The notes under the pieces: generated by a model
Seen by the model: only the letters and a program-made list of their open reading frames with translations
Databases searched by the model: none
Told to the model about the DNA's origin: nothing
Shown here: piece after piece, positions 1 to 58,008 of the stretch
Numbering within the stretch: position 1 is the stretch's first letter
Layout of the letters: each line of letters starts with the position of its first letter
Translations under genes and position numbers: made by a program
NCBI GenBank assembly: GCA_943788815.1
Contig: CALSRS010000001.1
Location: forward strand, 900,069-964,068
From: an uncultured Gammaproteobacteria bacterium
Lineage (GTDB): Bacteria > Pseudomonadota > Gammaproteobacteria > Eutrophobiales > Eutrophobiaceae
Length of the DNA: 64,000 bases
Direction: 5' to 3'

Positions 1-880
1 ATAATGTATTGAATGCAACGCTACGTAAAATCCCAGGCTCAGTATTAACCCAGACCCACATGGCTATTGCCGCAATCAATGCCTCAACCATAATTCCTGC
101 GGCCGCTACCAACATGCGCTGATGTTTATTTCGAAATGAAGCTGAAGATGAGGCGTCAACATACGGAACAGGCATAAAAATCAGGAACATTACCCCCATC
201 TCATGCACTTCCCCTCCCCAACGTTTAACCGCATAGGCATGACCGAACTCATGTACCAGTTTGACAATGGGATAGATTAACCAGATTAGAAAAAGATTTT
301 CCGTGGCCAGAATACGATCGGCAAGATTTTCGGTCAGTTGTGGCCAATGGTAAGCTGCCTGAGACAAAGCCCAGAGGATAAAAACCAGCCAGATCACCGC
401 CATGACCGGGTTATAAATCCATTTGCTGAACCCAGCAGTGCGGTTCAGAAAAGCTTCCGGATCAAGTAAAGGAAATTTGACGGCAAGCGGAGATTTAATG
501 ACTGACCAGAACTTGGTTTTTCTGGCCTTTTCACGTCGTTCATTTAATTCCAGAACATCAGGGGGCATATCCGTCTGAATAACATCAACACGATGTAATT
601 GGGATAAAAGTTTGATTACCTCATCCTGTGAGGGCATATCATCACCGAGTTGCTCACCGGCACAATGCCAGATATCTTCAAGTGAACGCTGTCCATTCAT
701 TAAACCAATTAACGAATATGCTTCGTCATTGAAACGATGAAATCGACCTGTAGCATCGTCTTGAATTACATACCAGACATCACCACGGTAGACATGACGG
801 TTAATCTCAACATGAGAACGTAATTTGGGTTTAAGATTGGCAACCCGATACCAGGATTCACTAAATAGTGAAACTGACAA
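1..880 (-). CDS. Peptidase M50 (site-2 protease family) membrane metalloprotease. Only the N-terminal ~293 codons are in the window; the gene continues beyond the window start. Probable TTG start at 878-880, directly after the TAA of the upstream gene.
   Basis: My own reverse-complement translation (this ORF is not in the supplied track because it has no stop in the window). It reads ...WYRVANLKPKLRSHVEINRHVYRGDVWYVIQDDATGRFHRFNDEAYSLIGLMNGQRSLEDIWHCAGEQLGDD...IWLIYPIVKLVHEFGHAYAVKRWGGEVHEMGVMFLIFMPVPYVD... The HExxH zinc motif (HEFGH, nt 236-262) lies inside a hydrophobic helix, as in M50 proteases. The ~60-aa N-terminal segment resembles a PqqD/RRE-like peptide-binding fold (…A..L..L.DG.R(S/T)L..IW…DV…L..L….VI…). 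It sits in the same frame immediately after the TAA stop at 881-883, which suggests translational coupling. Confidence 0.6.
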   Translation of the reverse strand, partial: MSVSLFSESWYRVANLKPKLRSHVEINRHVYRGDVWYVIQDDATGRFHRFNDEAYSLIGLMNGQRSLEDIWHCAGEQLGDDMPSQDEVIKLLSQLHRVDVIQTDMPPDVLELNERREKARKTKFWSVIKSPLAVKFPLLDPEAFLNRTAGFSKWIYNPVMAVIWLVFILWALSQAAYHWPQLTENLADRILATENLFLIWLIYPIVKLVHEFGHAYAVKRWGGEVHEMGVMFLIFMPVPYVDASSSASFRNKHQRMLVAAAGIMVEALIAAIAMWVWVNTEPGILRSVAFNTL

Positions 881-2707
881 TTATGGCCACCATTCCCACA
901 GTTTCAATTTAATCCACTGTTGCAGTGGATAGGTCCAGATCCAGATAAGCTTACGTTCGTCTACCTCGATCTTACCCACGCCTTCCATCCCTGGCCGCAA
1001 CTGTAAAATTGATTCACTTAAGGTCGCCTCGACACGAAAATAATTTCCGCCATCACGGGCCTCGGTTACCGGAGTAACCTGGGTAACAATAAAGTCAAAG
1101 GTATATTCAGGTAAAGAGTTAAGAATGAGACTGCCCTGCAACTGTTCTTCGATTTCAGACATTCTATGTTCATCTACCCAGAGAATGATGCGATATTTAT
1201 CAAGTGGCGCGACCTCAAACAACACCTCGCCCTGCTCTACCGCACTGCCCAATCGCTGACTCAACTCACCACTGACAACGAGACCATCGAACGGTGCAAG
1301 CAGACGGGTCCTTGATAGTTGACTTGAAATAAGTTCTAGTTGCGCATTGTTCTGCTCGAGCTGGGCCTGGATAACTTTTGCTTCGGACCGGTTCTGCTCG
1401 GCAACAGCACTCTCATACTGGCTTTGGAGTTTGGCTTGCTCACTCATAGAACCGAGTTTTTCCAAAGTCAGATCCCTGTCATCAAGGTTAGACATAATTT
1501 GCCCTTCGGTGACATGTTCTCCAGCCCTGACATTAGCAGATTCTAGATAACCATCAAATGGCGCAACAATGGCGCGGCGGATTGACGGCTCCAGGATACT
1601 GTCAGCGGCAACTCTATAAGTTCCGGTTGCAAAGTTAAAAAATACAACGAGGGTAAGCAGGCAGATGAGTGCTAGTTTTCGTCCGAGATAACCTTTACCT
1701 ATTATCCTTTGTAGTTGTTCCACAGTGGCAGTATATAAATGGAGATACCAGGATTTATCCTGCAAATATTTTGTGCGCAGGGCCTCGCCTGAGAGTGCGA
1801 CTATACTCTGAATCTGATCAACTTCATGTTCTAGAAAAGGTTTCTCGGAATCACGTTCCAGGGTAACCGCGGCAAAATATTCTTCACCTGAATGAAGTGG
1901 AATAGAAAGTAAACTGGCATTCCCATATGAGAGTGAAAATTGAGCATGCTCCCTGTCCACCAGTAATTTATTATCATGTTCACTATTGGGGTAATTGATG
2001 ATTCCACGCTGAACAACGGCTTCATCCATTACTCCAGCAAGACGACGAATCAAATTCATCTTTTTGCCAAATTGCGCACTATGAGAAAGAGCAGCTACTT
2101 CGATTTTCAAGCCTTTATTCATGCCAATACTTACTCGTTCACAATCGAACGCAGAGGTAAGTTTATTAACGAATGTCATGGAGGCACTATTAAATCCAGT
2201 TTCTGCAAGTACAGCGCCCAATAATTCCACTGCACCAGACAACCTATCAAGTTGAGTATTTTTCTCTTTGCCATCATGACGTCGCAAAAAGAGTTCTATC
2301 CAGGCACTACCCCACTGTATTTGTTCCATGATCCTGGGTAATGCTGATTGTGGTACGCGGACAGAAAGCGCGACAACACCTTTTAACTCGTTATCAAGCC
2401 GGATGGGAAAAGCTACACCATACATACCCGAACCAAGAGAATGAACAAGACCTGCGGCTTCTTCAATTGATTCCTCTAGCAGGGAAGTCAGACTAGTAGC
2501 GGGTTGGGTCTTTTCAGGCCACAGGGCCGCAGGTTGAAAACCTGATTCACCATTATCCAGAACCAATATAGCCTGACTGATGCTATCAAGCCGAATACAG
2601 ATTAATTCAAGCCAAAACTGGCAATATTCCTCATAGCTTGATGCAGCGGAAAAGTTGACCCAGACCTCACGCAAGCTGTTCTGGGTATCATCGGAATCAA
2701 TTTGCAT
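881..2707 (-). CDS. HlyD-family periplasmic adaptor (membrane fusion protein) with a ~320-aa N-terminal cytoplasmic extension predicted to contain tandem GAF-like sensor domains.
   Basis: 608-aa ORF. A single TM segment (LALICLLTLVVFFNFATGTY, aa ~325-345) is followed by a typical MFP periplasmic region. That region has a lipoyl-like hairpin (VAPFDGYLESANVRAGEHVTEGQIM…LLAPFDGLVVSGELSQRLGSAVEQGEVLFEVAP), a short coiled coil and a beta-barrel tail. The N-terminal 320 aa are hydrophilic with two alpha/beta repeats (e.g. …AILVLDNGESGF…GVVALSVR… and …ERVSIGMNKGLKIEVAAL…), consistent with GAF. The annotated ATG at 2705-2707 has no Shine-Dalgarno sequence (the upstream mRNA is CUUAUUCCUUCCUUGUU), so the true start may differ. 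Confidence 0.7.
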   Translation of the reverse strand: MQIDSDDTQNSLREVWVNFSAASSYEEYCQFWLELICIRLDSISQAILVLDNGESGFQPAALWPEKTQPATSLTSLLEESIEEAAGLVHSLGSGMYGVAFPIRLDNELKGVVALSVRVPQSALPRIMEQIQWGSAWIELFLRRHDGKEKNTQLDRLSGAVELLGAVLAETGFNSASMTFVNKLTSAFDCERVSIGMNKGLKIEVAALSHSAQFGKKMNLIRRLAGVMDEAVVQRGIINYPNSEHDNKLLVDREHAQFSLSYGNASLLSIPLHSGEEYFAAVTLERDSEKPFLEHEVDQIQSIVALSGEALRTKYLQDKSWYLHLYTATVEQLQRIIGKGYLGRKLALICLLTLVVFFNFATGTYRVAADSILEPSIRRAIVAPFDGYLESANVRAGEHVTEGQIMSNLDDRDLTLEKLGSMSEQAKLQSQYESAVAEQNRSEAKVIQAQLEQNNAQLELISSQLSRTRLLAPFDGLVVSGELSQRLGSAVEQGEVLFEVAPLDKYRIILWVDEHRMSEIEEQLQGSLILNSLPEYTFDFIVTQVTPVTEARDGGNYFRVEATLSESILQLRPGMEGVGKIEVDERKLIWIWTYPLQQWIKLKLWEWWP

Positions 2708-2816: not shown

Positions 2817-3134
2817 CTACTCTCCAGTTGTAATCCCGCTGATCTGACCATAGCGTTCTTCATATTGATCCAGGACATTACTTAGTAATATTGACAAGCG
2901 CTTGGCAGCATATGGACTGACGAGAATACGGTCTGAGAGTTCTATCGAAACTTCTTTTTGCTGTGCATTCCAGGCCTGATTGAGACCAAAAAATAATGCG
3001 ATTTCTTCCCGAGTGCTGGCAACGTTACATACATTTGCATAAGTGCTCTTCATTTGCGAATCATCCCAATTTATCTTAGGGGGAGTATTAGTAGCAGCCG
3101 GCTTACTCGCCGTTGTGGTTTTTTTAGTGACCAT
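2817..3134 (-). CDS. Small conserved hypothetical protein, DUF3467-like, translationally coupled to the giant gene.
   Basis: 105 aa. It has a good SD (AAGGA) 7-8 nt upstream of the ATG and starts only 14 nt after the giant gene's stop codon. The motifs …INWDDSQMKSTYANVCNVASTREEIALFFG… and the C-terminal …AAKRLSILLSNVLDQYEERYGQI match my recollection of the DUF3467 family. The family assignment is from memory, not from a search. Confidence 0.45.
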   Translation of the reverse strand: MVTKKTTTASKPAATNTPPKINWDDSQMKSTYANVCNVASTREEIALFFGLNQAWNAQQKEVSIELSDRILVSPYAAKRLSILLSNVLDQYEERYGQISGITTGE

Positions 3135-3148
3135 TATTTTTCCTTATA

Positions 3149-6100
3149 TTAATTTAACCTGATTCTTTTAAGTGCATTTTCCCACTCACTATGAGACACG
3201 AGCACATCATCTTCATCTCCTAAAAAACACTGACTGTTTTCATCCCAGTACCTGACTTTTCGCTGTTTATGATGCAACTTATCGATGCCTTTTTGATCTA
3301 TTCGTATATTACCTTTACGCTCGCCATTTGTCAGTTTCCAACCAGTTAATCCTGCAAGAAGAGCGGACTCTATCACTATACTATCAGAGTACTCCGCCAT
3401 ATTATCATCGGCAATAACTAAACCTTGTTGATCTTGAGCAGGTAGCATAAAGGTTGTACCTTCTGTATTAAGATCGTTCCTGTTCGCGCCAGCCGACTCA
3501 TCTTCTTGAGCATCAGTTTCTTCTTCTGGCACACCTGGCTCTGAGTCTTCAATTTCAGATGGATCCTGAATATTGGTAGTTTCTGTTGCTGTCTCGAGTT
3601 CCTGATTTTCTGTTTCATCTGGACCCTCTTGCTGAATATCAGGCCCGCCTTCTACTTCATTAAGTTGCTGATTTTCAGTTTCATCGCTATTTAACCTTGT
3701 CTCATCTACATTTATATACTCATAAGAATGCGTGTCGATAAAGCTCTGATATTCAATAATTCCTTCTCTGGAATAAATTGTCCCTGTGTCTTCATCAATT
3801 TCTTCCGGAACATCAGGCAAGTTCAGCGGGGCAAGAAGATTACCTACGGCTTCATTCTCTTCTTCCTTATTTTCATATAGTCCAGATGTGGTTGCAGCCA
3901 ATAAATCCAGAGAGCCTTGTGCAAGGTAAGTAATAGCAATTACTTCACCATCATCTTCGTTCTGAGTAAGATACGCATATTCACCAGACAATATGTCATC
4001 CGATAATACTGCATTAAATAAATCATTACCAAAGCCGCCAAACATACTGTCATTACCATCTCCACCATCGAGAACATCATCATCACCTATAAACAACTCC
4101 GTTGTTTCTGAAATAACCAGCTGGCCATTAATAAAGGTTGCCCTACCGCCGTCACCAGAAATAAAATCACTGCCTTCATCACCATATAGCTCGTCAGCTG
4201 CTGCGCCACCAATAATTACATCATCATCTTCACCACCATGGACCTCATCCTCGCCACCATTATCTGAGAAAAGACTCTCAACCATATCTAGTGTGTTGGG
4301 ATCGGAATCTGTTAAATTAAAGACAGCGATGCCAAGATCGCCAATCACTATATCCTTACCTGCGCCGGTAAATACTAATTCATTCCCCAACCCACCGATG
4401 ACAAGGTCATTACCGGCACCGCTATCGATGGTGTCATCACCAGATGTTGTCAGGTTTGTGTCCGTCGTAAAATACTCATCCGCCAGACCATTGATATAAT
4501 CGGCAATACCATTATCACCAAAGATAATGTTATCACCGTCTGCGATGGTTACCTGATCATCACCAACACCTGCAAATACCAGGTTATTTCCACCACTTAC
4601 AGAGATGATATCATCTCCGCCCAGGGCACTTAATTCGCTTTCAACCTGGACGCGTTCACCACTACTGCCATATCTGACTGTGCCATTATCACCCAAATAA
4701 ATACTGTTACCAGCGCCAGATTCTATGGTGTCGGCACCACCCCCACCGATCACAACTTTATCGCCATCGCCCATAGTTACATTATCATTACCACCTATAT
4801 TACTTTCGGTATTAAAAATAGTGCTCTTGATCCCCGCTGTCCACTGAATCTCGCCGTTATCCCCCATTACATAATCCGTACTGTCTCCGGTATCAATGTC
4901 ATCACCGCCCACACCACCAATCACCACATTTACATCCGTGGCACTGGCACCGCCCAGCGTCAGAGTGTCTGCACCACCAGCAGTGCTGGTGCTCTTCGCC
5001 ACTTCCAATATGTTATTGGCGTCATATCCAATCTCACCCTCATCACCCACCACATAACGTGTGCCCACACTGCTCAGCGTCGTCGTCACCGTGTCCTCAC
5101 CCAGTCCAGCTATTACCACCTTGTCACCACTGCCAAGGGTAATACTGTCATTGCCACCGGCCTCACCCAGATAACTCTGCATGTTAATCAACTGCTCAGA
5201 ACCCGCAGGTCCTGTATACGTCATCACACCGTTATCGCCCACAACATGGTCGGTACTCGTCGCCGCCACTACCGTAATCGTGTCGTCATCACTGCCACCA
5301 ATTACCTGGTTCACATCCCCCGACAAGGTGATCGTGTCCTGGCCACCATCAGCATTGGCCGTGCTCTTCACCGTGCGCAACGCGCCAGTCGCATAAACGA
5401 TCTCGCCGTTGTCTCCAATCACACGGTGTATGCCAGACGTCCCGGTGTCCACCGTGTCATCCGCCATACCGGCTATCACCGTCTTCGAGCCATTACCCAG
5501 GTCAATATCATCATTGCCGCCAAACGCACTGTTGAGGCTCACCATGCTATCGATAATGCCACCCGTCCACTGAATCTCGCCGTTATCCCCCATTACATAA
5601 TCCGTACTGTCTCCGGTATCAATGTCATCACCGCCCACACCACCAATCACCACATTTACATCCGTGGCACTGGCACCGCCCAGCGTCAGAGTGTCTGCAC
5701 CACCAGCAGTGCTGGTGCTCTTCGCCACTTCCAATATGTTATTGGCGTCATATCCAATCTCACCCTCATCACCCACCACATAACGTGTGCCCACACTGCT
5801 CAGCGTCGTCGTCACCGTGTCCTCACCCAGTCCAGCTATTACCACCTTGTCACCACTGCCAAGGGTAATACTGTCATTGCCACCGGCCTCACCCAGATAA
5901 CTCTGCAGGTTAATCAACTGCTCAGAACCCGCAGGTCCTGTATACGTCATCACACCGTTATCGCCCACAACATGGTCGGTACTCGTCGCCGCCACTACCG
6001 TAATCGTGTCGTCATCACTGCCACCAATTACCTGGTTCACATCCCCCGACAAGGTGATCGTGTCCTGGCCACCATCAGCATTGGCCGTGCTCTTCACCGT

Positions 6101-9100
6101 GCGCAACGCGCCAGTCGCATAAACGATCTCGCCGTTGTCTCCAATCACACGGTGTATGCCAGACGTCCCGGTGTCCACCGTGTCATCCGCCATACCGGCT
6201 ATCACCGTCTTCGAGCCATTACCCAGGTCAATATCATCATTGCCGCCAAACGCACTGTTGAGGCTCACCATGCTATCGATAATGCCACCCGTCCACTGAA
6301 TCTCGCCGTTATCCCCCATTACATAATCCGTACTGTCTCCGGTATCAATGTCATCACCGCCCACACCACCAATCACCACATTTACATCCGTGGCACTGGC
6401 ACCGCCCAGCGTCAGAGTGTCTGCACCACCAGCAGTGCTGGTGCTCTTCGCCACTTCCAATATGTTATTGGCGTCATATCCAATCTCACCCTCATCACCC
6501 ACCACATAACGTGTGCCCACACTGCTCAGCGTCGTCGTCACCGTGTCCTCACCCAGTCCAGCTATTACCACCTTGTCACCACTGCCAAGGGTAATACTGT
6601 CATTGCCACCGGCCTCACCCAGATAACTCTGCAGGTTAATCAACTGCTCAGAACCCGCAGGTCCTGTATACGTCATCACACCGTTATCGCCCACAACATG
6701 GTCGGTACTCGTCGCCGCCACTACCGTAATCGTGTCGTCATCACTGCCACCAATTACCTGGTTCACATCCCCCGACAAGGTGATCGTGTCCTGGCCACCA
6801 TCAGCATTGGCCGTGCTCTTCACCGTGCGCAACGCGCCAGTCGCATAAACGATCTCGCCGTTGTCTCCAATCACACGGTGTATGCCAGACGTCCCGGTGT
6901 CCACCGTGTCATCCGCCATACCGGCTATCACCGTCTTCGAGCCATTACCCAGGTCAATATCATCATTGCCGCCAAACGCACTGTTGAGGCTCACCATGCT
7001 ATCGATAATGCCACCCGTCCACTGAATCTCGCCGTTATCCCCCATTACATAATCCGTACTGTCTCCGGTATCAATGTCATCACCGCCCACACCACCAATC
7101 ACCACATTTACATCCGTGGCACTGGCACCGCCCAGCGTCAGAGTGTCTGCACCACCAGCAGTGCTGGTGCTCTTCGCCACTTCCAATATGTTATTGGCGT
7201 CATATCCAATCTCACCCTCATCACCCACCACATAACGTGTGCCCACACTGCTCAGCGTCGTCGTCACCGTGTCCTCACCCAGTCCAGCTATTACCACCTT
7301 GTCACCACTGCCAAGGGTAATACTGTCATTGCCACCGGCCTCACCCAGATAACTCTGCAGGTTGCTGAGTTTTTCTGCACCTGCAACACCTGAATAGGTC
7401 ACGATCCCCTGATCACCCAATATATGGTCGGTACCATTTGCACTGATGATCGTATCTATCCCGCCACCACCGAGAACGACATTATCCCCTTGACCAGCAA
7501 TGATCTGGTCATCACCCGGTAACACAGAGACCGTGGTCCTGGTCTGATACAGGACGTCTGTCAGTGTGACCTCACGGGCATCGAACACGGCTGGATTACT
7601 TTCTATGATGTGAGTGCCTGTCGTGGTGATCAGATCAACCGCACCATGGTCACCGAAAATAATATCGTTACTGAAATCAATTAACGGATCGGCATTAAGA
7701 ATTTCACCATAGAGATAGTCGTTACCATCGCCACCAAAAATAATGTCATCACCTGCATCGCCGTAGATGATATCGACACCGTCGCCGCCCTTGATAATAT
7801 CCTCATCATTCCCGCCCCGGATCCGTACCGCTAAATCTGCGGTGGAGGCATCGATAACATCGGCGCCAGCATTACCCCAGATCTGTATGCGGCGTTCTTC
7901 AATGGGTAGTAATAATAAATTATGTGCAGGCGCCAAAAGATTATCTGTGGCAGTGATAATGATATCGTCATTACCTTCATTGGCATATAACTCTGTAATG
8001 GTAATGCCGGTCATCTCAATACTGCTCACGGTAATGGTATCGTCACCCTTACCGGCCCATACCACCAGGCCATTGTTAAAATCCCCACCCGCGGCATCAT
8101 AATTAATCGTGCCAACGGCCAGACCGCTGATACTGCCGTCTGACATCTGTGCATTTTTAGCTACGGTGTTATCAAAATCACTGATAAAGAGGGCGTTATT
8201 ACCGACGCCAGCATCAATGTTCAACTCACCCTGTACACCATCGAGATTCCCGTCGGCAAGTAACTGGTTAACAAAATAACCATCGGCAGTGGAGCTAACA
8301 TGGAATTGCTCGTCACCCACACCGGTATTAATGTTGGTGACGGTATTAAGGCTAGTGGCCTGGACATTAATAGTGTCAGTTCCGCTCCCCGTGTTGATAG
8401 TAAGGGTGTCAATTCCATAATAGTTAATGCCATCAGTCCGGGTTGCCAGTTCAGTATCACCAACAATGTCATTGATATCTGTGGCCAGGATACTGTAACC
8501 GGCATATTCACCCTGGAAGGTAAAGATAAAATCATTATCGGCTTTGACTACCGAGAAGTTATCCGTCTCAGGGTAGAATTGACGGCGTTCCTGGGTATTA
8601 TTCGGATTAAACAGGTAGTTGAGTTCGTCAAACCAGGTATCTGCATCAGCGGGATTTGCCTTAAGTTGCGGGATATCGCCGGCGCTGAAAGTCACGGACC
8701 CAACCGGAATGCCGGTGTGGTCAAGGTCACCTGGTGCGTAAACTGTTAAAACTATATTTCCACTTCCTACACTGATGGTTTGTACGGTATTTAATTCTGG
8801 TGTAGTAGTACCTTCTGTCAGGTAATTCACCCTGGCCCGTGGTGCGAATGGTGTTGTATCCGATATGGTCAGGTCGCGATGCTGGGCTTCCAGGTCAGTA
8901 AAATCTACCGTGCCGGTAGTGTAATCAACAACATATGTCCTGATTCCGCTATTAATACTCAAATTAACATTAATATTTACATCGTCTTCAATCAGTAATA
9001 ATTGTGCGACCGCTACCTTCATGTCGGCATCAGAAGCGGTAGATTCCAACACAACCTGATCGGATATTGCCCCGTCATCCCCCCTGGCCAATAACACGTA

Positions 9101-12100
9101 GCTACCGTCAACATTATCAACAATCAAGTTGAACTGACTGGATGTGCTGGCACTGGTATTCAGGGTGCCAACATTCGATACATAGAATGCAGGCACTTCA
9201 AACAGTGAGTTGTCTGGATTATAGCGCGGTGCAATATCGATGATATATTTACGTTCACCGTTACCAGGGTTGGTCTGTAGCTCTACTGCTAAAGATAACC
9301 CGCTAACATTGAGCAGGGTATTTATTATATTGGCAATATCCGTTTCATTGGCATCCCACTGTACAATTGCGCTCGATCCACTTTCCGAAGCAATCTGGTA
9401 TGTCCCGCTACTGGCTTGTGTTGTCAATGTGAACTGGTTAGCAAAAGCAATAGGCTGGGCTGTGGGTATAAAGGCTGCGATCTCGGCAATATTTTTACCT
9501 GCAGATTCACCAATGAAGGAAATCTGGTATTGCTTGATTTGATCATTGAACTGATCTGGCGTAGTGATATTGATATTGGCCACAGGTTCGCCCGTCATGA
9601 TTGCCAAAGCACCAGCAATTTCACTATCGGTTGCATCCCAATTCAACAACTCATAAGTTATGCCACCGTCAGTAGATAAATGATAGGTGCCGGCTTCGGC
9701 CTGAATATTTAGCAGGAATGTCTCTGGCACGCTGGGCATATCCAGACCAGTCAGGGTGGTATCTGTCAGCCACAGGGTATTATCATTGGTATCCCCGCTG
9801 TCATTTACAATCAGAGAATTGTTACCAAAGTCATCACCGATTATGGTTAATAACGCCATAATTTGATCAACAAGCTGGCTATCACTGCTGACGGTCACGA
9901 GATTATTATCAGCAAGTGCCTGGTCAGTGCCAAGGTTGACCATGGTATGACCGGAAATCGTTTTTATATCAATGATACTGCCACCGGCACCGGTATATAT
10001 ATTTGTCGCGCCGGCATGGGTGGCTTCTATGGTCAGGGTGTCCTTGCCGCTGCCGAGGTACAGATTAAGTTCTTCCAGGTTTGCGTAGCGAATTCCACCC
10101 GGAATATCCTGACCGGCCAGCTCTATCCCGGTACCCATACCAAAACCGGTAAGGCTTTCCGCTGTCAGTATGCCAAATTCCTCAGCCGGGCTGCCGCTGT
10201 TATTAAAATTCAGTACATCAACCTGTTCTTCCTCGACCACCCTTTCATTACGATTTAGTGGGCGGTAATAGTATTCATCATTATTGCTGTCATATCCTGT
10301 TGGCCATGTGGCCGCGAGTATCACCCGGTTACCGATCACTGCCAGTATATCCACCACATCGCCGGTTATATTACGTGTGGTCTTATCAATAAAACCAAGC
10401 TCATAAGGCGCACCATTAATGCGTGGGTCAAATCCCTGGACCTCTCCGTCATCCTGATCAAAATTTGTAACCGTTTCATCGACAAACGTAGCAAATTCTG
10501 TGATTCCAGTCTTGTCAGAGTCGGTTAGAAATTCTCTCAGAACCTGGTAATTCACTGTCGTCGTTAATTCGGGCTGGGCAAGAAAAGCCTCTAACTCGGC
10601 ACGGGTAATCGTGTTTGTAGTCGGTGTCGCCAGTTCTATCTGTATACCCGCAGTTGTTAGAGTACCGTCCTTGCTTCCGGTTGTATTGCTGGACTTTTGC
10701 CCATTGACGACCGGGTTGTTGGTTTCACCCGGCAACATTACTGGATCATTGAGATCGACATAACTCGCGGCCACCGCCCCACCCTCGATACTGATAGGTC
10801 CGCGGATCTGGTTAACCCTTTGCTCTGCCGGGGCAAAAACCTGCAGGTCTCCACCATCAACCGTATTATCATCATCTGCGGTTACCGTGACTACAAAAGA
10901 TGCAGAAGATGATGGTGTTACAGGATCTGGTGTTGAAGTTGTTTGTTTCGAATTACCAGCGCCACCGTCAGTGAATGCCCTGCTGGCATCATAGGTGGGC
11001 GTATCCAAATCGGTGACTGTGATCCCATCAGCAGACTTGGTCAGCACCGCCTTGTATGTATCATCCAGCCCGGCGAGCCAGTCAGTGAAATCCGTGCCTT
11101 TATATACGCTATCGGTATTGGTTCCATCATCGATGACCTTGTAGACCTCATATCTGCTTCCTTCATCTACATCATCCCATAGTGATGGATCTGCGGAAGC
11201 TGTCGCATCTATTTCAAAACGGTTAACCTTGATATTATTTTCATAGGCAGTAAATGTCCTGATTATTCCTTCAGCACCTGCACCCGGACCGGCAATTACA
11301 CGAATATTTTTTTCCTCTATGGTCTGATTATTAAGATTTGAATTGTGCTGCTGAATGGATACATTCAAATCATATGAGGTGCCAGGAGCCACTCCCCGCC
11401 ACTGGTAGTTATAGGGACCATAGTTATAGTTAAGATTCTCTGAATTATAGTTGCCGGTATAGTTGTCCTTGGTCTGTATAAAATAATTATATTCATATAC
11501 CGTAGACTCCAGATAACCAACCTCAACGACATAGGTACCTTCAATGTTAAAGGTGTTTTCTATATATGGATCCGCCGTAGAAGTGACCTTTACTGGATTG
11601 AGCATCATACCGGGGTATGTGGCAGACTCAGGCAAACCCTGTACATTTTGAATATACGAAACGAATCCCGCACGTAACTCAGGGGGTAATTGCTCTGAAA
11701 CCGTTGATAACTGCGCCTGCAGGGCTGCACCCGTTACCCTGGTCGAAAAATCCACCATTTCATAGATGATCAAATAAGGCGTTTTGACCAGATTTTCTTT
11801 AATATCATAGTGAACGCTGGTGGTAGTTCCCAGGGGATGAATAGCTGTGGCTGCACTATCATAAGTATAGTCACCAGCATAATTTCGCACATTCTCCTTT
11901 TCTTGTTTCACGTCATCAAGATCAAAGAGTGCACCGACACCATTGGAATTCACAGAAATATTTACGATGGCGTCATTAAGACCGGAGATTGTCAATTCGC
12001 GTATATTTACCACATCCAAACTAGCCGTATAGCCGGCCGTAACCAGGTCCTGGAGCAAATCTGCGAGTACGGTATCCATACTGGGCAGGTCACCATTGAC

Positions 12101-15100
12101 AGACGATGATGCCTGCGCGCTGGCCTTCTCAACACCGTCTATGGTGACAGTCCAGACCTTGCCGCTATAGACCGATTCCGAAGAAAAGTCATGCACATAC
12201 GTATCAAAGAATTTGACATCCGGGTCTGGGTCCTTATTCAATGTGGCGACCTTGTTTTCCACAAAGTGGAGGCTATCCACATCGAAGGGGGCATTTCCCG
12301 TTGCCGTGATTAACAGGGTATTTTTAGCCGTGTCCAGCGTGAATACATACCCCGGGAAGGCCGCATCAAGATCACTGAGCAGATCGGGGTAGACAGTAGC
12401 CGGACTACCACTGGTTGCGAGGGTGATTGAAGTTGTACTACCGTCGAGTTCAAAGTCCCAGACCTCACCGGCAACAAAACTGGTTTTGATTTTGGTAATA
12501 TCAAGTTTACCAACAAAATCGTCATCATTACTTTGTGTGGCAAAATAACTGATTTCAGTTTGCTCATCGTTCACAGCATTTGCCAGGCTAAAGCTTATGG
12601 TCGGTGCTGATGACAAATCAGTGTCATTGGTATTGTAGATATATGCGCTCGATGCCGAGGATGATTTCTGAACTTCATAGTTACCGTTTGCCGAGTATGC
12701 TGTATCGATGAGATCCAGCAAATCGCTCTGGCTGGTAGCTGATGCCGATGAACCACCGATGGTGTATTGGCCCACAATCCCTGTATTACTGATGGTCAGT
12801 TTGCGTGCCTCGAACAATGACTCCTCGGTAGCGACAGTATAATCCGCACTATCAACAACTATTGGCTGAGTATTATCACTATCCGTTAGAACAAATAGGC
12901 TACTGTTATCAGTTAGTGTGTATCCCGAGGTAGCTGTAGACCACACAGACCCGTCGAAGGTAAAATCAATATTGGTGCTGCCATTAATGACGATTTTCAG
13001 TAAATCTCCATTTTGTGCAGCTGTAAAACTGGCTGGATAGGCAATATTCGCACTACCATACAAATCAATATTGGACGGAGTAATGTTACTTAGTGTCTGG
13101 TAAGTGGCCGATACAGTGGTGATGTCTGTATCGCCATTATTTGCAATTAGTCGGCCACTATTGTCCAGGTCAAAATCTACATCACTAGAGGCCCATGCAC
13201 CCGCTGCAGTAGTATCATATTCAAAGGTAACCGTGATACCTGCAGGGCTGCCAGTCGGGTAGCTCGTGGTGTTCATGTTCACGGTAACCCTATCCCCGCT
13301 GTTGGGGCTGAGACCTGTAAGATCAGAAACCAGGAAAGCGGGGGCGTTTCTTAAGGAACTTAAAGCCTCGGTAACCGATACATCATCGTATATGGCGCTA
13401 TTAACCGTAAATGTGCCTGTAGAGGTTCGGCTGATTTCAAAATCAGTCGTACTGTCGACCATCTCATAAGTCCCATTAGAAGAAGTCCAGGTTGTGCCAT
13501 CGAAGGTAAAGGTTACGACAAATACAGAGCCATCTGTGATAATTGCCTTAAGGGTATCGCCTGTGGCCGGTATTACCGCCGGGGAGGACGGATACGTAAT
13601 ATCCGCTGGATCACCGGACGCAAAATTTCCAGTTGCATCGGTTATTGTCAGAGCATGGGTATAACCAGGATTAAATACTGCATTGGCCAATACCACCGCT
13701 GCATTAATATTATTTCCGTTAACTACTTCAAACTTCGAAGCAGGAACGGTGACATGCGTCAATGTATGATCCGGGTCAGGTGTAGTCCATGTGCTACCAT
13801 TATAGGTGAACACAACGGAATTTGTATTGATCTCGACGGTAATGGTTGAACCGGTTACGGGGGTAGTCGAAGGATCATTGATGGTCGCTGCACCGTATTC
13901 TGTCGTGTCATTATGGGACTGCGTTGAAACTGTAAAGTAATCGGCTGTATTGATATCAATATCAACCACGGTACCATCCGTGGAAGTAATTTTTCCCGTT
14001 GTCTCATTAAGGGAATAAACTGCGTCGTTGCTGGACCAGGTAACCCCATCATTGGTGATGAATGTGACCGTAGCATTGGTTCCAGAGGTACCGGCATCCT
14101 GATTGGTATCAAGGCCTACCTCGACATAATCACCGATGGCCGGAGACAGTGCCAATGATGCTTCACCACCCACCACCGGAGCGTCCGTCAGGGCGGTTAT
14201 GGGTAGCACCTGCCGCAAACTGAAGCTTGATGGTGAGGCAGAAGTATCCACCAAGATATAGGTACCGTCAATTTCCAGGGGATCAGTAAAGTTGGCATCA
14301 GCCGTATATGCAGCCACAAACGATTCGGCAAAATCATTTTCCAAACCCAGGTCCGCCACGGTAAAGGTAAAACTATTACTCCCGTCACTGAATGTCCATT
14401 TTGTCCCCACAGAGGCAGCGGCCGGTACAGGTATCAATACAGCAGCAGCCTCATTAACCGTTGGCAACTCTACGTTGTCGTAATTGATATCGAGACTGTA
14501 GGTATAACCTTCGCCTGCGGGCACCGTTATTTCCAGGGTAGTGCCATTTCTGTTTGCACTGCCACCGATCAACTGTACAAGCCTGTCGATCACCTGGGTC
14601 TGGTTGGCATAAGTTGAACTGGTTGTTACTTTATGGGTAACAGGTGTTCCACCATTGTCTATGGTCAGGATCCAGTCTTCTTTATTATAGTTGACAGTGG
14701 CTGAACCAAAATCCACTTCCATCTTCTGTCCAACACCGATTTCTGCGGGTATGCCAGTTAGCGTGACTGAAGGTGTATTTGTTTGATCCTGACTGGTCCT
14801 GGTATGTTCCACCCAGACGGAGATGGCCGCCGCAGATCCCGAGTAAACCAGGTTATTACCACTCTTGCTCAAACCAATCAGGCCGTCAAATTCAGTGGCC
14901 AGATTATCCGTAGAGCTGAGTACGGTGTAGCTTTCTATAGTATTTCCAACCTGGATAAACCACTCATCTCCATTCTCAAGATTATTGAAATTATTGAAGG
15001 TAATGGTCGCATTGGTAAAAAGAATATCGCCGTTACCGTCATGATTATCAATCACTGTTGTCCTGGCAGTGACTCTGTCCGCGGGTTGCTTGACTGTCAG

Positions 15101-18100
15101 AACCGGCGCACTGGTAAAGTAAAAAGCGGTATTGGGAGCTGCAGTCAGGGTTACAACATCCCCACTTGTACTGGCCGTTATCGCTCCGGCAGTTGATGAC
15201 TCGGCATTGATTGCATTGACCAGATTTTGGGCAAGAGACACACCCGATGTAACAACGTAATCACTGATGTTGGTTGTGGTGTGGGATGTTTCCCCGGGCT
15301 TGTTTATCACCAGAGACGCACTCAGCAACTGACCATTGATAGGGTCACCGTCCATGGTTATCGCGGCAGTCTTATACCAGTTGGCCACCAGGATAGTTGA
15401 GTTCACAGCATCAAACGTGGATCCGCCGGCACTAGTCAACATGGCTGTATTAACGACAAAATTATAGCGATCCACGGTGCCATCACCGCCACCCGAAATA
15501 GTGGTATAGGGTGTGGAAGAATCAATATTTAATTCACTGGCACCTGGCGGTATATCATCTCCAATATTTCCATTGGCAAAGGTATACCAGTTGTCTGCGT
15601 CTTTATTAGCTGGAATTGTTAGATCTGCAGGGTAGTCCGGATCTTTTACCCAGTCATCAATATTACTGCCGATAATATTGTTATTTGCGTCTTCATCCTC
15701 AAGGATAGGGTCCGGTGCAAAGGCCCAGGCGTCGCGTTTATGCCCTTCTACAGAAACTTGCAGTTCATAGTCGACACCATCCGGCAATCCCAGCTTAAAT
15801 CCTTCCTTATAGTTGTAATACCAGTCATAGCTGTTCGTCACTTCAATAACATAGGTACCAACGCTATTGATTTCATATGTATTGAAATCATCGTACCAAT
15901 ACATATCATAGGTATAATCAACCGAGTTATACGTATAATCCCACGTGCTGCCACCGCTGGCATAAGGACCTGCACTTAAATAAGTAGTATCGGTACGTGC
16001 GGCGAAGCGCTGATTATAATCAGTCGCATAGTCCTGGGGACTGACCTCGATGAACTTGGTCGAATCGGTGGGGTCTACCTTGTATAACTTAAGTTGGCTA
16101 CGCCACCAGAGATCATCACCATAGGTATAGCCCTTGTCCACATCAAGATTGACCGTCACGGAATTGCTGGCATTAGTCAGCATCGTAGAATCAATCTTGA
16201 AACTATAGAAATCTGCGCTGCCTTCCAGTTCTCCACTGATGCTGATATAAGGAAACGTGTTTGGAGCAAAAATATCCGTATCTACCTCAATACCCCACTC
16301 GGAATCCTCGAGATTCTGGGCGGTGGTGATGGTGTTATTTTTTCTGCTCTCACCAATTTCAGGTAGGCCAAAGGTACCGCTGAATTCCCATTCAGACGTG
16401 GTAGCATTATAGACACCCTGATCAAGCAGCTGCCCTTCCACGTAGACAACTTCCTGGGCCTTTTCTGTGACGATGGTGCTGCCATCTGTCTCAAGGAAGA
16501 TAATATCCTGAACCTCGTTGTCACCGATCATAACGTCCACAGAGGCAATACTAATACCGCTATATTCAGGCGCCGTTGTGGTAATGCTATGGTCGATATG
16601 ACTGTAGTGAATACCTTCAACCGCTGTGTCATCCATGGCGGAGATAGTTATCTTCGCAGCATGGTTCCAGTGGTAGATGTTATTAGCTGTATTTTCCGCT
16701 GTTCCACTATTGACAAAGGTTATGGACGATGGCTGGGTACTTAATTGTGCACCGGTATTAGGATCAACATACGGGCTTATATTTACTGTTACCGGTTGCC
16801 CCAGAGGAGGTTCTTTTGACAACATTAACTCATAGCTATCGTGATCCACCGCATAATTAGTCTGCCCTGCAGCCACATCTATCTCGCCGACTACTAATTG
16901 TTCCTGGGATGGTAATACCACCACATTCGCTGTCTGCGTATCCACTACCCTGACCACAAAATTATTGACTTCCACATTGTCATATTCATCGCCATCCACT
17001 GCACCATCTTCAACAATAGTGTGCTGTATCTGGTAGGACTGTATGCCTTCTATTCCGCCATTAAATGCACCGCTATCAACGGGTGCTGTAACCGTAATAA
17101 TGCGTTCCTGATACCAGTTGGTCTTGTCAAAAAGGAAGGTTACGCCCTTTGCACTGCCATTGAGTAATATGCCTTCCGGTCTGATCAGGGTATCAGTATT
17201 CTGGCTGTCCTCTGCATCTTCAGCAAATGCTGGCTTGGCAGAGAATGAAACAACCCCCTTGGGCGGACGGGTAAGTAATACTGCATATTGCACATAGGCA
17301 TAGGCGCCGAAAACCGCACCTGCCGGGCCTGCTCCGCCTGGGTTATCTTCAAATATGGTATTACCCGTACCAATCGGAATCAGTCTGACACCGGCTTCGT
17401 CTTCATCCATAACTTGTGTGCTGAGTGTACGAATGACATCGCTGGTCAGGGTTTCATGCTCTATCAGGCTGTTATAACCCTCAAGATCGTCGGCCACGAC
17501 AGAGACTGCATCACCGTCGGGTCCATCGCCTATATTGAAGGTATCAGAACCAAGACCGCCTATGATCTGCAATTCTGCATCAGCAGGTGTACTAAAAACG
17601 AAGAAACTATCGTTACCCTCAAGCCCATCCACAATAATCTGTTCGATTCCGTCATAGGACGTATAGCGGCCGAGGCCATAAATACCCTCATCTGTTACGA
17701 CGAAGTCATCGGCGAATTCAGTACCGATTACGGTTAATGAATCAAGGCCATCGCCACCGGCGATACGGACGGGGGAATTAATGGCATAGGAAATATAATC
17801 AGCCCCGTCACCACCATTGATATTCGTAATCGGCGCCAGTGGATCATCAGGGTCTACCAGCACAAATGATCGCACAAGGAAGTTATCACTGTCCGCACCA
17901 CCCAAAAGACTAACAGTGGCCTGGTTGCTGAGTACAGTAAAACTGTCGTCCCCGATCCCACCAATCAAGGTTGCCGCGGCACTCACACCATTGGACAGAT
18001 ATCCCTGGGTAGTGAGATAGGTAAGAAAGGTATCATCAGCACTCAAGCCCGCAAAGGTATCCCGTGGGGATTGATACATCTGTCCCAGCTGGAAGATATC

Positions 18101-21100
18101 ATCACCTTCACCAGCATCAACCGTCAGCAGCACGTTGGAATCATCAAAGATGAAAGTATCATTGCCGCCATAGGTAGACAGCGATAGTCCAGCAAATCCC
18201 GAATAATCTATTCTTTGGGCAACATCATAGCGATACAACAATGCATTACGGAACAGAAAATGGTCATCAACATCCTCGATGTCTTCAGTACTGATGACCA
18301 GAGCGTTACCGGCCGAATTGGCATCCGTTGCGATGACATCATCAAGATTGATATCCCCAGTGGCGGTACCATATATTTTCAGTTGGTAGTAATCAGCATT
18401 TGCACCGCCTGAAATATACATCCCCTCGACATTACCCACCTGGGTGACGCTGATTTCATCCTGACCGGCGCCGGTCAACAAGCTAAGGGCAGCCGCCGAT
18501 GTGACGGACGTAATATTACCGGTCTGTTCCAGCGAGAGAGTAATTTGGTCAACATCACTAATACTATCAACGTCAAAACTACTTCTCGTCGCCAGAGACA
18601 TGCCTTCGATTGTCCCTGCAATAATCACATCAGCAACGGCAATACCATCGGCAAGTTCGATATCCACGGCCCGGGAAGTGCCATTGGCAGATGTAATGAT
18701 TGCAGACTGATTTATGATCAGGTCCAGAATGTCATTAAACTGACCAGTGGTTACGACATGCATTCCATCAATTGAGCCGTCCAGATTGACGTTTGCATTG
18801 AGTGACGTATCACCCAGATCAAATACTATTGATGGGCTGCTACTATCTGCTGAAGTCACTACAGCAGTACTAATCAGATCAAGATCCAGATTGCCGTTGA
18901 CGGCATCTATATTAAATCCGTTTACAATTCCCTGTAGGTTAATATCGACACTCCCACCACCAGCTCCGGTATCAATGGAAACGGTGCCCGCGTTACCCGT
19001 GTTGTCAAAATCTATCGTATCAATTCCTGTCCCGGTAACTAGCGAGATCCCATCAACATCTCCTGCTGAGAGAAAGTTGGTAACGGTAGCTCCGTTGGCA
19101 AGATTAATATCTATGGCGCGGGAGGTGCCGTTTGCAGAGGTAATGATGGCGCCCGCCTGTATGGTCAAGTCGACAAGATCGGTAAAGACCCCTGCACTAT
19201 CCAGGAAAAATCCGTCTATGGTACCGGCAAGGTTAATGTTCGCATTAACCGAGGCACTACCCAGGTCAAAGATAATTGACGGGCTGGTACTGTCCGGTGA
19301 AGTAACCATTGCATTCACCAGCATATCGAGATCCGTAACCCCGTTATCGGCATCCAACCTGAAGCCGTTCACCGCTCCCTGCAGATTAACGTCAACCCGC
19401 GCCGCACCATCGTTGGTTTCAATGGTGACAGTACCGATAGTACCGTTACTCAGCAAATCCAGTTGATCAGCACCGCTACCCGTATCAATGGAAACATTAC
19501 CCGCATTGTCATTTATGGTGACGTCAATGATATCCGCGGCTGCGCCTGTCTCAATTACAAGGTTACCCATGCCACCGGAAACTGAGATATCAATCTCATC
19601 AACGCCATTACCAGTATCAATAGTAATGTCACCCGTGCTATCAATTGTAATGTTACCATCGCTATCAATGACAGGATTCGTAATACCAATATTCACAAAA
19701 TCTTTATCATTTTCTCCATAAAATGCTAACGAACCCTTCATTGAGATAACATTGACAGTATCCTCACCATCACTGGCAAATAACGAGACTTTACCCGCAT
19801 ATGTGCTATCAATATGAAATATATCGTCACCTCCGCCTGTGTAGATAGTGATCTCATCAAGATATTTTGCCGAATCAATACTTATTTCTTCGACGAGTAT
19901 CGTTGATGCATCATCATTAATATTCAAATTGAGATTCTCTACACCAGCAAACCATATGCCAAGATCATTCAGACCAACCACCGAATCATAGACCACGGTG
20001 TATTCAGTACCCGGTTCACGGCCTATGACAACCGATGAATCAACAACAATATCGACATCTTCAATTTTGGTAATAATGATATCGGTCGGCAAGTAGAAGC
20101 CGTCCGTATCCTGTACAGTTTTAATATCGACGCTGTGGCGCTGGTTTGCACCATCATAGATAAACAGGCCGTCACTAATGGGTACCGTGATGTCGGGAGC
20201 GGTGCGTAATGTTTGTCCAAAGGCCTCTTCAATCAACTGTGTAACCTGCAAGTCGGTAAAGAAACTGGTATCAACAGGGTTGCCAACAATACCATCGGCC
20301 GGGTCGGTAATGAGAGGATCAGCCAATGCAGCGTAATAATCATGCCGTGCAGACGTCAACTTGTTTTCAACAACCAGTGCATCCAGGTAAGCGTTCCAGT
20401 TATTCACGGTAAGGTAAACCCGGTCTGACAGTAAAGCACTTGCAGGATCAAGGGCTACCTGACCATCAACGGTCACTGGCGGCGTGATAGTATCATCACT
20501 ATCATTCAGGCGTCTTACCGCGACTGCTTCAAGGGCCTGCTTACCATCACTGTCAACACCATAGTATGAGTAGGTGTAATAGGATCGTTCATAATTGTCG
20601 ATCTCGGCAACATAGGCCCTCTCCATTTTTATTGGATCGTAACCATAAGTGAAACCATCGATACGACCTGTAATGAGATTCGATGATGACTTGTTTGCCT
20701 TGTTTCCATCCTTGTATATGACGTAGTTGATCTCGCGCAGGGTACGGCTCTCACCCAAGGTATCATTGGGCGGCAGTGCCAGATCGCCAGCCATGATCTT
20801 CGCGCCCTCCTCGTAGGGATCAAATCCGGTCGTGTTTGGTCGATTGAAGAACTCTTCTACTGGCGAATCGATTGTTTCAACTTCGCCAGGGAGAGCGGTA
20901 CGATACTCGGATTCCAGCCATATTTTCTGGTTATATTGCCAGGTGGATTCCCGCGCTGCCAGCACTGGTGAGTCCTGCTTGTACACTCGCAGCGCCGTAT
21001 CGCCGGTCCAGGAAAAACCTTCGGTAGTCCGAAGATCCTGGCTGACAGAGGTTAACTCAACAAAATGCTTGAGCTCGTTCAGGCGCGTCTCAATGGTAAC

Positions 21101-49618: not shown

Positions 49619-50959
49619 TTACCTCTCCAACATCTGGTTGATCTGTTGCAGATCATCTGGAGTCAGAATACCAACCAGCGCCTTGAGCCTGAGCCCATTC
49701 AACAAATAATCATATTTTGCTCCTGCCAGGTCTCGTTTAACGGCATATAGATCACGTTCCGCATCGAGCACACTAATGGCTGTCTGTAACCGTGCTTCAT
49801 AGGCTGCACGCCTTAGATCCAGTGTTGCCTGCTGTGCGGAAAGTGCCTGTTTCAATGCATCTATTCTCTTTACCGCTGTCTCAACACTCCAGTAAGCATC
49901 TCGGGACTGACGCCGTGACTCGCGCATGATTCGAGTCAGTTCTTGCAAGGCACTACTATGGCGGGCAATCGCTTCGCGTTTTTTTGAACTAACCGCACCG
50001 CCAGAGTACAAGGGCATTGAAAATCTCAGCAAAATCTCCTGGGTCCCAACTTCGCTACCGCCGCCAAACAGCGTTCCTTTGGTATCCTGATTGTTATAAC
50101 GTGCAACTGCATCCAGTGTCGGATAATGCCCGGCTTTCTGGCGGGTAATTTCCGTACTCGCAACCTCAACCGCATGCTGCTGGGCCACCAGTGCCGGGTT
50201 TTGTTTCATGGCAGCATCCACCCAATGCTGCTCATCTGCGGGTTCAGGACTCCGCAGGGTGATCTCTTCCTGCAAGGCATTTAAAGAGTCTGCGTCTCTC
50301 CCCACGATTTCATAAAGTGCCTCTTGAGCGTCTCTCAACAAAACCTGCGCAGCAGCATAATCCGCTTCGACAGATGCCATTCTTGCCAGGGCATCATAGG
50401 TATCAACTGAGCGACCCACCGCAGCCTGTTCCCTGCCCCTTGCCAATTCCAGTTGTTTTCCTACTGCGATGCGTTCTGCATCCAGAAAACTGATTTCATC
50501 CTCAGCTGCGAGGGCAGAAAGATAGGCCTCGGATACCCGTAGTATTAAGTCCTGCTGTGCCTGTATCAGTTTCGCATCTGCCAATTTCAATTCTTCTTTT
50601 GCCTGACCAATACGCTTATAATTGGCATACCTGAAAATTGGCTGACTGACCGACAGTGTCCACGTGGTGGTAGGAAAGCTGGTCTTACCCTGTTCAAACA
50701 CAGCATTATCACTGCGCTTGATTTTCTGGGTGGTTTCGATCCTATCCACCTCGAAAGTAGCCGTTGGTCGATAGCCAGCCCAGGCCTGGGGTATGACTTC
50801 CTGGGTTGCGGTATGATCAAAGATTGCTGTGTTTAATTTGGGATCAGCCTGAAGTGCCTCCTGGTATAACCCAAGAAGATCATCAGCATTAGCTGAAGAT
50901 AATAAAAGAATAAATAAAAGAACAATCCTGTAAGCAGGAGCAATTAAAAACCGTTCCAT
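49619..50959 (-). CDS. tolC: TolC-family outer-membrane channel protein (type I secretion outer-membrane component).
   Basis: 446 aa with an N-terminal signal peptide (LLFILLLSSANA) and the motif DDLLGLYQEALQADPKLNTA typical of TolC N-termini. Two internal repeat halves have a coiled-coil/beta pattern. The gene lies 258 bp upstream of the giant gene on the same strand. Confidence 0.85.
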   Translation of the reverse strand: MERFLIAPAYRIVLLFILLLSSANADDLLGLYQEALQADPKLNTAIFDHTATQEVIPQAWAGYRPTATFEVDRIETTQKIKRSDNAVFEQGKTSFPTTTWTLSVSQPIFRYANYKRIGQAKEELKLADAKLIQAQQDLILRVSEAYLSALAAEDEISFLDAERIAVGKQLELARGREQAAVGRSVDTYDALARMASVEADYAAAQVLLRDAQEALYEIVGRDADSLNALQEEITLRSPEPADEQHWVDAAMKQNPALVAQQHAVEVASTEITRQKAGHYPTLDAVARYNNQDTKGTLFGGGSEVGTQEILLRFSMPLYSGGAVSSKKREAIARHSSALQELTRIMRESRRQSRDAYWSVETAVKRIDALKQALSAQQATLDLRRAAYEARLQTAISVLDAERDLYAVKRDLAGAKYDYLLNGLRLKALVGILTPDDLQQINQMLER

Positions 50960-54887: not shown

Positions 54888-54955
54888 GTTTATGTATTAA
54901 ACATTCAAAAAGGTCGCGAATTTTAACGAATTCTGAATGGATAACAAGTATTCAT

Positions 54956-57988: not shown

Positions 57989-58008
57989 GGCCTGCTTTTC
58001 ATCGCTAC

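Follow-up and report, generated by a model that had tools for sequence, protein, structure and literature searches.

A PqqD/RRE-like domain on an M50-HlyD fusion protease encoded in a SecA-like/TolC cassette beside LEPR-XLL giant proteins

The DNA analysed here, henceforth the window, is a stretch of 64,000 nucleotides from an uncultured Gammaproteobacteria bacterium (GenBank assembly GCA_943788815.1, contig CALSRS010000001.1, positions 900,069 to 964,068 of the forward strand). At its left edge lies the 5' part of a gene for an M50 family membrane protease that is fused to an HlyD-like adaptor and that starts with a PqqD-like domain of the kind known as RRE, the recognition element for peptides that are made on ribosomes and modified after translation (RiPPs). 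The gene belongs to a conserved cassette that includes a truncated SecA, and in the window it is found together with a TolC gene and the gene of a giant protein carrying the LEPR-XLL motif near its N-terminus. The features of the protease gene in the window are as follows.

1..880, minus strand: 5' part of the RRE-M50-HlyD fusion gene, residues 1-293 of 715, with a TTG start at 880-878; the window edge cuts the open reading frame (ORF)
827..880, minus strand: conserved N-terminal extension ahead of the RRE fold, residues 1-18, SxSWYRVxxLKP
575..826, minus strand: PqqD/RRE-like winged-helix domain, residues ~19-102, predicted to be cytoplasmic
239..253, minus strand: HEFGH zinc-binding motif of the M50 core, residues 210-214

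Translation from position 880 of the minus strand gives the N-terminus MSVSLFSESWYRV..., and this start position agrees with the N-termini of 92 homologues. The upstream gene, which encodes a GAF-HlyD protein, ends in a TAA stop (883-881), and the TTG codon comes immediately after it. Sequence beyond the window edge was taken from ENA ERZ10646601 contig_20711 (341.5 kb), numbered here as locus L081, where the complete gene at L081:11828-13975 encodes 715 amino acids, the first 293 of which are identical to those in the window. The assignment to the M50 proteases made by the original prediction, a note drawn from the letters of the window, was correct. H210, E211, G213 and H214 are invariant in the family alignment A2, Pfam Peptidase_M50 matches at 2.7e-7 with 30.6 bits (cut-off 27.2), and the third zinc ligand motif, NGNPLLRFD, is present just past the window edge at residues ~306-314 of the full protein, in a pattern (N[GA]NPLL[RK][FY]D) that is conserved family-wide.

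The domains of the full protein follow in the order RRE, basic linker, M50 membrane core, strongly basic loop, a further membrane helix and an HlyD-like adaptor of ~270 residues; the C-terminal half matches HlyD_3/HlyD_D23 and RND_mfp. A plain hydropathy scan was too crude to settle the topology. Given that the adaptor can only be periplasmic, that the lysine- and arginine-rich loops lie opposite to it and that the segment following HExxH is similar to a site-2 protease (S2P) re-entrant loop, the protein is inferred to cross the membrane seven times, so that the RRE and the two zinc-ligand motifs would face the cytoplasm. Among 1.84 billion cluster representatives, a profile search found the N-terminal domain in 2155. 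Full-length proteins with this domain have 712-727 residues and the RRE always lies within residues 1-124. The RRE-M50-HlyD architecture is fixed and widespread. The HlyD-like fusion, the membership in a SecA-like/TolC cassette and the earlier record of RRE-M50 proteins had all been missed by the original prediction.

The fold of the N-terminal domain was examined by profile and by structure. Pfam PqqD (PF05402) aligned to residues 37-101 over model positions 2-67 of 67 (E=0.0077, 17.0 bits), and the nearest genomic relative, L001 (72% identity), scored 23.8 bits with the same model, over its cut-off of 23.4. Many homologues have precomputed matches to PF05402 and are called "PqqD family peptide modification chaperone" by NCBI, so that the RRE annotation itself is not new. 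When a profile built from 54 sequences of protease residues 1-125 was searched against all PDB sequences, the top match was PqqD 3g2b from Xanthomonas (E=0.0014), aligned between protease residues 18-101 and residues 13-93 of 95 (81 of the 95 residues), followed by PqqD 5sxy from Methylobacterium. An AlphaFold2 model from the same alignment (predicted local distance difference test score, pLDDT, 86.8) showed strands at 24-31, 34-41 and 46-50 and helices at 52-59, 67-81 and 85-97, in the order b-b-b-a-a-a. Foldseek matched this model in the PDB to TfuB1 (6jx3_B), TbiB1 (5v1v/5v1u), PqqD (5sxy), CteB, LynD, TglI and ThcOx, with target-normalised template modelling scores to RREs of 0.69-0.76, and of 0.71-0.76 for TbiB1. 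The predicted three-stranded antiparallel sheet followed by three helices is that of the winged-helix fold. Strand beta3 reads RFHRF and helix alpha3 reads QDEVIKLLSQLHR; R49, Q85, L91, L95 and H96 on these two elements are conserved in the family alignments.

The sheet and three-helix bundle are shared with PqqD and with the RREs of RiPP pathways. The domain differs from them in its identity of only 14-22%, in the 18-residue extension that precedes the fold, in its fusion to a membrane protease-adaptor and in having a ligand that is so far putative. The extension has the consensus SxSWYRVxxLKPRLR, in which S7, W10, Y11, R12, V13, L16 and P18 are nearly invariant (alignment A1). The PqqD/RRE-like segment proposed for this protease was therefore recovered by the PDB profile search and also by the structural comparison that had been suggested as its check, which returned RRE structures; its extent needed correction. 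Instead of the first ~60 residues, it occupies residues ~19-102 behind the conserved extension, and the string that had been quoted for it (RFHRF...HRVDVI) corresponds to residues 46-102. Presence in all M50 family members regardless of context had been named as a sign against a role in recognition. This is so within the subfamily, where the RRE is constant whether or not a giant is visible nearby, but not for M50 proteases generally, RseP for example, which lack it. Since profile and structure agree independently, a chance match was ruled out as the explanation of the signal. We regard the predicted fold as real with very high confidence, a judgement that covers jointly the fold and the well-supported cassette described below.

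The rest of the cluster in the window lies upstream of the protease gene on the same strand.

881..2707, minus strand: GAF + HlyD-like membrane-fusion protein of 608 residues (Pfam GAF, HlyD_3, HlyD_D23)
2817..3134, minus strand: DUF3467 small protein of 105 residues (Pfam DUF3467, 1.8e-22)
3149..49360, minus strand: giant ORF of 15,403 residues, presumed cargo, with LEPR-XLL, DUF4347, sparse RTX repeats and a matrixin-like segment
~37637-37834, minus strand: matrixin-like (Peptidase_M10) segment in the giant, residues ~3843-3908
49232..49300, minus strand: LEPR-XLL motif, candidate leader, giant residues 21-43, ...NLQFEQLEPRILLSADLG...
49619..50959, minus strand: TolC-family outer-membrane channel gene, the first of the cluster (Pfam OEP, 2.3e-49)

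Read in the direction of transcription, the order is TolC, giant LEPR-XLL protein, DUF3467, GAF-HlyD, RRE-M50-HlyD, truncated SecA and short HlyD. To see the cassette in other genomes, one genome per species was scanned; more than 579 loci were found, and 80 were retrieved with ~10-kb flanks. Cultivable hosts of such loci include Maricurvus nonylphenolicus KU41E, Marinobacterium mangrovicola and Mesorhizobium (loci L006, L038, L046). In essentially all of the 80 loci with enough flank, the M50 gene has the GAF-HlyD gene directly upstream, and a SecA-like ORF of ~664 residues lies directly downstream of the M50 gene in the surveyed loci. In L081, DUF3467, GAF-HlyD and RRE-M50-HlyD are followed by a SecA-like protein of 660 residues and a short adaptor or membrane-fusion protein of 270 residues. 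The M50 stop codon abuts the SecA-like start (L081:13975-13976), and the SecA-like and short adaptor genes overlap by 4 nucleotides (L081:15955-15958). Since stop and start codons abut or overlap, the gene arrangement implies translational coupling and the co-translation of what would be a complex. TolC genes also adjoin the cassette, on its upstream side, in L025 and L072.

The SecA-like protein contains the SecA_DEAD, SecA_PP_bind and P-loop_SecA domains and matches the NCBIfam SecA model at 5e-183. Its alignment to Bacillus subtilis SecA covers solely residues 18-604, and by this alignment it is a truncated paralogue, which would keep the motor, the preprotein-binding domain and the first scaffold helix and lack the wing domain, the two-helix finger and the C-terminal tail. 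DUF3467 was found by tblastn in 39 of the 80 loci. Sequence and profile searches of the PDB with DUF3467 gave no match, and its AlphaFold2 model, with four strands and a long helix, was mediocre (pLDDT 67.5) and had no fold match in the PDB; the idea that it is a SecB-like chaperone was unsupported by these searches and this model. An HlyB-like ATP-binding cassette (ABC) transporter gene is absent from the 64-kb window and from the next 10 kb. The cassette has a membrane-fusion protein and TolC like those of a secretion system of type I (T1SS) but is not a canonical member of that class.

A cassette of this type has been described before. In an in silico study, Kamneva, Poudel and Ward (2015, PLoS One, PMC4452313) reported a "secondary SecA_DEAD" locus related to T1SS in Proteobacteria, Nitrospirae, Planctomycetes, Verrucomicrobia and Chlorobi. 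It consists of M50/HlyD, GAF/HlyD and truncated SecA_DEAD proteins with an extra HlyD and sometimes OEP/TolC, a composition that the cassette in the window shares, and the latter is a locus of this kind. In that study it was suggested that SecA is the ATPase and that the M50 protein forms the membrane component, the role was called "completely unknown" and no ABC transporter was found at the loci; PqqD/RRE domains, DUF3467, the cargo and the LEPR-XLL motif are not mentioned there.

The giant protein upstream of the cassette is a member of the LEPR-XLL family, as NCBIfam NF012209 matches its residues 21-43 at 1.9e-8 with 33.5 bits (threshold 17 bits). The peptide covering the motif is NSRKAAKRKENLQFEQLEPRILLSADLGITL. 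DUF4347 matches at 2.3e-51, and in the 10,000 giant residues scanned the Pfam matches besides the matrixin-like segment were only DUF4347 and two small RTX repeat patches. A logo of 62 distinct leader sequences begins with a basic N-region (median 20 residues, 25% lysine plus arginine) and then reads hydrophobic-hydrophobic-F-E-x-L-E-P-R-hydrophobic-L-L-S-A-D. Its hydrophobic stretch is too short and is broken by glutamate, proline and arginine, and a classical Sec signal peptide was therefore ruled out. Among 120 relatives of the N-terminal region of the giant (residues 1-360; P0121-P0240), 66 have the motif. Cyanobacterial DUF4347 proteins from Planktothrix, Microcoleus and Nostoc are without it and begin directly with DUF4347. 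By its distribution among these relatives, the candidate leader is a separable module. A 715-residue ORF also lies inside the giant gene on the opposite strand (5246-7393, plus strand); it is most likely spurious antisense sequence, and the match of its length to that of the 715-residue M50 protein is coincidental.

The association between the cassette and such giants was examined in the 80 retrieved loci. A large ORF on the same strand has its end just upstream of the cassette in 32 of them, and all but one of these 32 (31) run off the 10-kb flank, with lengths up to more than 2700 residues; four further loci share the C-terminal region of the window giant. With a small hidden Markov model (HMM) of the motif, an N-terminal LEPR-XLL was detected in 8 of the 80 loci, on a same-strand ORF that follows the SecA-like gene ~1-2 kb downstream, and in L032 on an ORF upstream of the cassette, and there was no comparable match elsewhere in the six-frame translations of the retrieved loci. 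Altogether, a giant or LEPR-XLL ORF is adjacent in 44 of the 80 loci, or about three quarters of those with adequate flanks. All neighbouring large ORFs judged to be cargo and with a visible N-terminus carry LEPR-XLL; helicase-like ORFs in L030 and L075, which lie ~2 kb away and are without the motif, were left out as non-cargo. In the reciprocal direction, two of five LEPR-positive DUF4347 proteins on long contigs (P0152 and P0127) have a complete cassette immediately upstream. At L084, a DUF3467 gene lies near a LEPR-positive DUF4347 gene that lacks the cassette, and a LEPR-negative cyanobacterial DUF4347 example has nothing cassette-related nearby. A second DUF4347 giant gene, whose leader is a variant (...KALEPRIMLDAAA), is found at L081:20071-21827, downstream of the cassette and ~20 kb past the window start. 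Two cargo proteins that differ in sequence after LEPR may therefore be served by a single cassette.

These neighbourhoods suggest that the giants are the cargo of the cassette, which we consider probable. Since the cassette sits beside giants that carry the N-terminal tag, LEPR-XLL is most likely what the RRE would recognise. Recognition of an N-terminal signal is backed only indirectly, by the reciprocal neighbourhood of cassette and motif and also by the relationships of the M50 core, which is closest to RiPP leader peptidases. In NCBIfam comparisons the core by itself matched the daptide peptidase model best of all models, at 2e-29, YydH/LiaK at 3.6e-6 and RseP at 0.058, and on account of these three E-values it is far nearer to the leader peptidases than to RseP.

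The daptide peptidase MpaP/DapP (NF041824) offers the closest architectural parallel, as it too has an N-terminal RRE followed by an M50 core. The window protease matches this model (daptide_HExxH) at 1e-34, and the cassette protease is collinear with model positions 2-360 of 379. However, it scores 120-135 bits against an equivalog cut-off of 300, has an extra periplasmic HlyD-like domain of ~270 residues, occurs in Gram-negative hosts with TolC and SecA-like partners, and would act on presumed substrates of 1,500 to more than 15,000 residues rather than on daptide peptides of ~50. By these scores the cassette protease is a homologue of the daptide peptidase and not a member of its family. 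The daptide tailoring genes (DapB DUF-RRE, decarboxylase, aminotransferase, alcohol dehydrogenase, methyltransferase and short precursors) are found neither in the window nor in L081, and identity as a daptide or other RiPP biosynthetic gene cluster was ruled out as these genes are missing. In MpaP the RRE is fused N-terminally to an intramembrane S2P, and the RRE-dependent enzyme was proposed to remove a leader in which a conserved ELExMEAP abuts the cleavage site; the two hydrophobic positions of ELExMEAP are essential for processing of MpaB/MpaC (Ren et al., bioRxiv 10.1101/2023.03.08.531785). A spacing of hydrophobic-E-x-hydrophobic-E also occurs in LEPR-XLL (F-E-x-L-E). This parallel rests on a short pattern and is suggestive only, since the isolated RRE has no match to the daptide model. 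For the same reason homology to the daptide peptidase at the level of the RRE was dropped, and only the shared architecture is claimed.

We propose that the RRE-M50-HlyD protein, the GAF-HlyD protein, the short HlyD, TolC and the truncated SecA might together form a type-1-like exporter that spans the envelope and secretes the neighbouring giants, a model to which we give an even chance. The basic N-region and the F-E-x-L-E-P-R-x-L-L-S-A-D motif of the cargo would act as its leader. Just as RREs take up RiPP leaders, the cytoplasmic RRE would bind this leader as an additional beta-strand and hold it at the cytoplasm-facing M50 active site, where the M50 core may clip the leader, gate it or both. 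A cut, if there is one, would by analogy with daptides be expected at LEPR or just behind it. The SecA-like ATPase would feed the polypeptide, unfolded and N-terminus first, through the M50/HlyD/TolC conduit. The GAF domain could provide regulation and DUF3467 may be accessory. Direct contact between the RRE and the leader has, in our judgement, at best an even chance and perhaps slightly less. That the whole amounts to a distinct secretion pathway, in which HlyD/TolC adaptors and a motor derived from SecA have been combined with an RRE and a site-2-type protease so that giants of up to more than 15,000 residues are exported N-terminus first, with LEPR-XLL as a dedicated cleavable signal, is put forward more tentatively still.

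Several observations weigh against this proposal. The window protease by itself falls under the PF05402 gathering score (17.0 vs 23.4 bits), and the isolated RRE region had no match to NF041824, so that only the M50 core matches. About a quarter of the loci with adequate flanks have no giant within 10 kb. The other three of the five LEPR-positive proteins are without a full cassette within 10 kb, one having DUF3467 only, one a membrane-fusion protein only and one nothing. There were ten pairs of RRE and leader, too few for covariation. RTX repeats near the C-terminus of the giants are a hallmark of classical T1SS cargo with a C-terminal signal, and it is possible that an ABC exporter elsewhere in the genome serves the giants.

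The last two points lead to an alternative in which the giants are ordinary T1SS cargo that leaves C-terminus first via an ABC transporter encoded elsewhere. LEPR-XLL would then be a surface retention element that is cleaved by the RRE-M50 protein in a manner like LapG, and the SecA-like protein would serve extraction or quality control. N-terminal retention modules released by proteolysis are known in RTX/T1SS adhesins, with LapA and LapG as the paradigm, and RTX repeats occur in the C-terminal regions both of the window giant and of giants at related loci. Yet three adaptors, TolC and an ATPase are encoded at the locus and an ABC exporter gene is missing from the window and the 10 kb beyond it, as it is from the loci of PMC4452313. 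In addition, the RRE and the M50 active site probably face the cytoplasm, whereas an N-terminus that is retained would be in the periplasm or at the surface. We consider this alternative improbable. We hold it to be very improbable that the cassette instead processes and exports an unrecognised small peptide, like a RiPP or a bacteriocin, and that its adjacency to giants is incidental or reflects island structure. The nearest relatives of the M50 core are indeed RiPP leader peptidases, and M50 enzymes of the EpeP type are thought to cleave and export peptides (PMC10885120). However, neither tailoring enzymes nor a conserved short precursor ORF accompany the cassette, whereas 44 of the 80 loci, from several phyla and with either gene order, have a giant or LEPR-XLL ORF next to it, and long unfolded chains are a fitting substrate for a SecA-type motor that has a preprotein-binding domain.

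The remaining alternative concerns the RRE rather than the cargo. The RRE-fold domain could be a regulatory or scaffolding module that gates the M50 active site, as the PDZ domains of RseP or the CBS domain of SpoIVFB do, or docks the SecA-like protein, DUF3467 or the GAF domain, with LEPR-XLL being read by the preprotein-binding domain of SecA instead. The SecA_PP_bind domain of the SecA-like protein is intact and could recognise the leader without the RRE, which also weighs against our proposal. The RRE does not vary within the family, including at loci without a visible giant nearby, translational coupling of the cassette genes implies a tight complex, and accessory domains are established gates of other S2P proteases, all of which would fit such a module. 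Against this stands the fact that every experimentally studied RRE binds linear peptide leaders, that the nearest structures are leader-bound complexes and that the same RRE-S2P architecture in daptides is leader-dependent; DUF3467, present in only about half of the loci, cannot be a universal ligand of the RRE. This alternative is unlikely, although it retains an appreciable chance.

The proposed exporter can be compared with other systems that join recognition to proteolysis or export. The C39 or peptidase-containing ABC transporters (PCATs) have a cytoplasmic module for leader recognition and cleavage in the inner-membrane part of an HlyD/TolC exporter. The likeness is a functional analogy only, namely a recognition and cleavage module built into a tripartite exporter. 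In C39/PCAT systems a cysteine protease, unrelated in fold and catalytic class, stands in place of the RRE and zinc intramembrane protease, and ABC domains in place of a SecA-like DEAD motor; they and the RTX T1SS exporters with C39-like domains use a double-glycine leader or a C-terminal RTX signal rather than an N-terminal LEPR-XLL. M50 cores with HExxH and NPxxxxD in membrane helices are also combined with a soluble domain that controls substrate access in RseP, which has PDZ, and in SpoIVFB, which has CBS. The protease of the cassette resembles these in having an M50 core plus a soluble accessory domain, but here the accessory domain is an RRE and there is no sign of site-1 cleavage or of a signalling role.

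No literature that combines PqqD, M50 and HlyD was found, nor, in the accessible literature, was a connection of the RRE to LEPR-XLL giants or a leader-guided SecA-like/TolC export route. In that literature LEPR-XLL is named once in each of two papers, and the one match to DUF3467 was uninformative. Giant genes of Omnitrophota have been described in a preprint with SecA domains inside the giant proteins, which is a different situation. According to a 2026 preprint, the Chlorochromatium giants with LEPRxLL "lack known signals for transport", and a horizontally acquired secA is co-expressed with them. What is new here is the tie between the RRE and LEPR-XLL giants; the PqqD-like annotation, the daptide architecture and the cassette of 2015 were already known. 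LEPR-XLL marks many of the largest known bacterial proteins, including the Chlorochromatium symbiosis proteins of 20,000-36,000 residues, and the proposal, drawn from comparative genomics, joins an orphan secretion locus and orphan giant proteins in one testable model. If it is true, there would be a new export route in which a leader-recognition domain of RiPP pathways is newly used on full-size proteins, and RRE-M50-HlyD together with a short SecA would provide a genome-mining handle for giant adhesins and toxins. Should nothing beyond the fold assignment hold, the result is a routine annotation that public databases already contain.

The remaining genes of the window lie upstream of the TolC gene. 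An insertion sequence element, comprising an HTH_Tnp_1 ORF and an rve integrase ORF (51265-52607, plus strand), is located between the TolC gene and a housekeeping block (53655-59043, minus strand) with genes for aspartokinase, alaS, recX and recA. Since this element separates the TolC gene from the housekeeping block, the arrangement suggests that a secretion and giant-gene island borders core genes. Further along, 61651-63156 (minus strand) encodes a 501-residue protein with two cyclic nucleotide monophosphate-binding domains and a rhodanese domain, and the adjoining 60655-61647 (minus strand) encodes 330 residues without a Pfam match. Both seem unrelated to the RRE-M50 finding.

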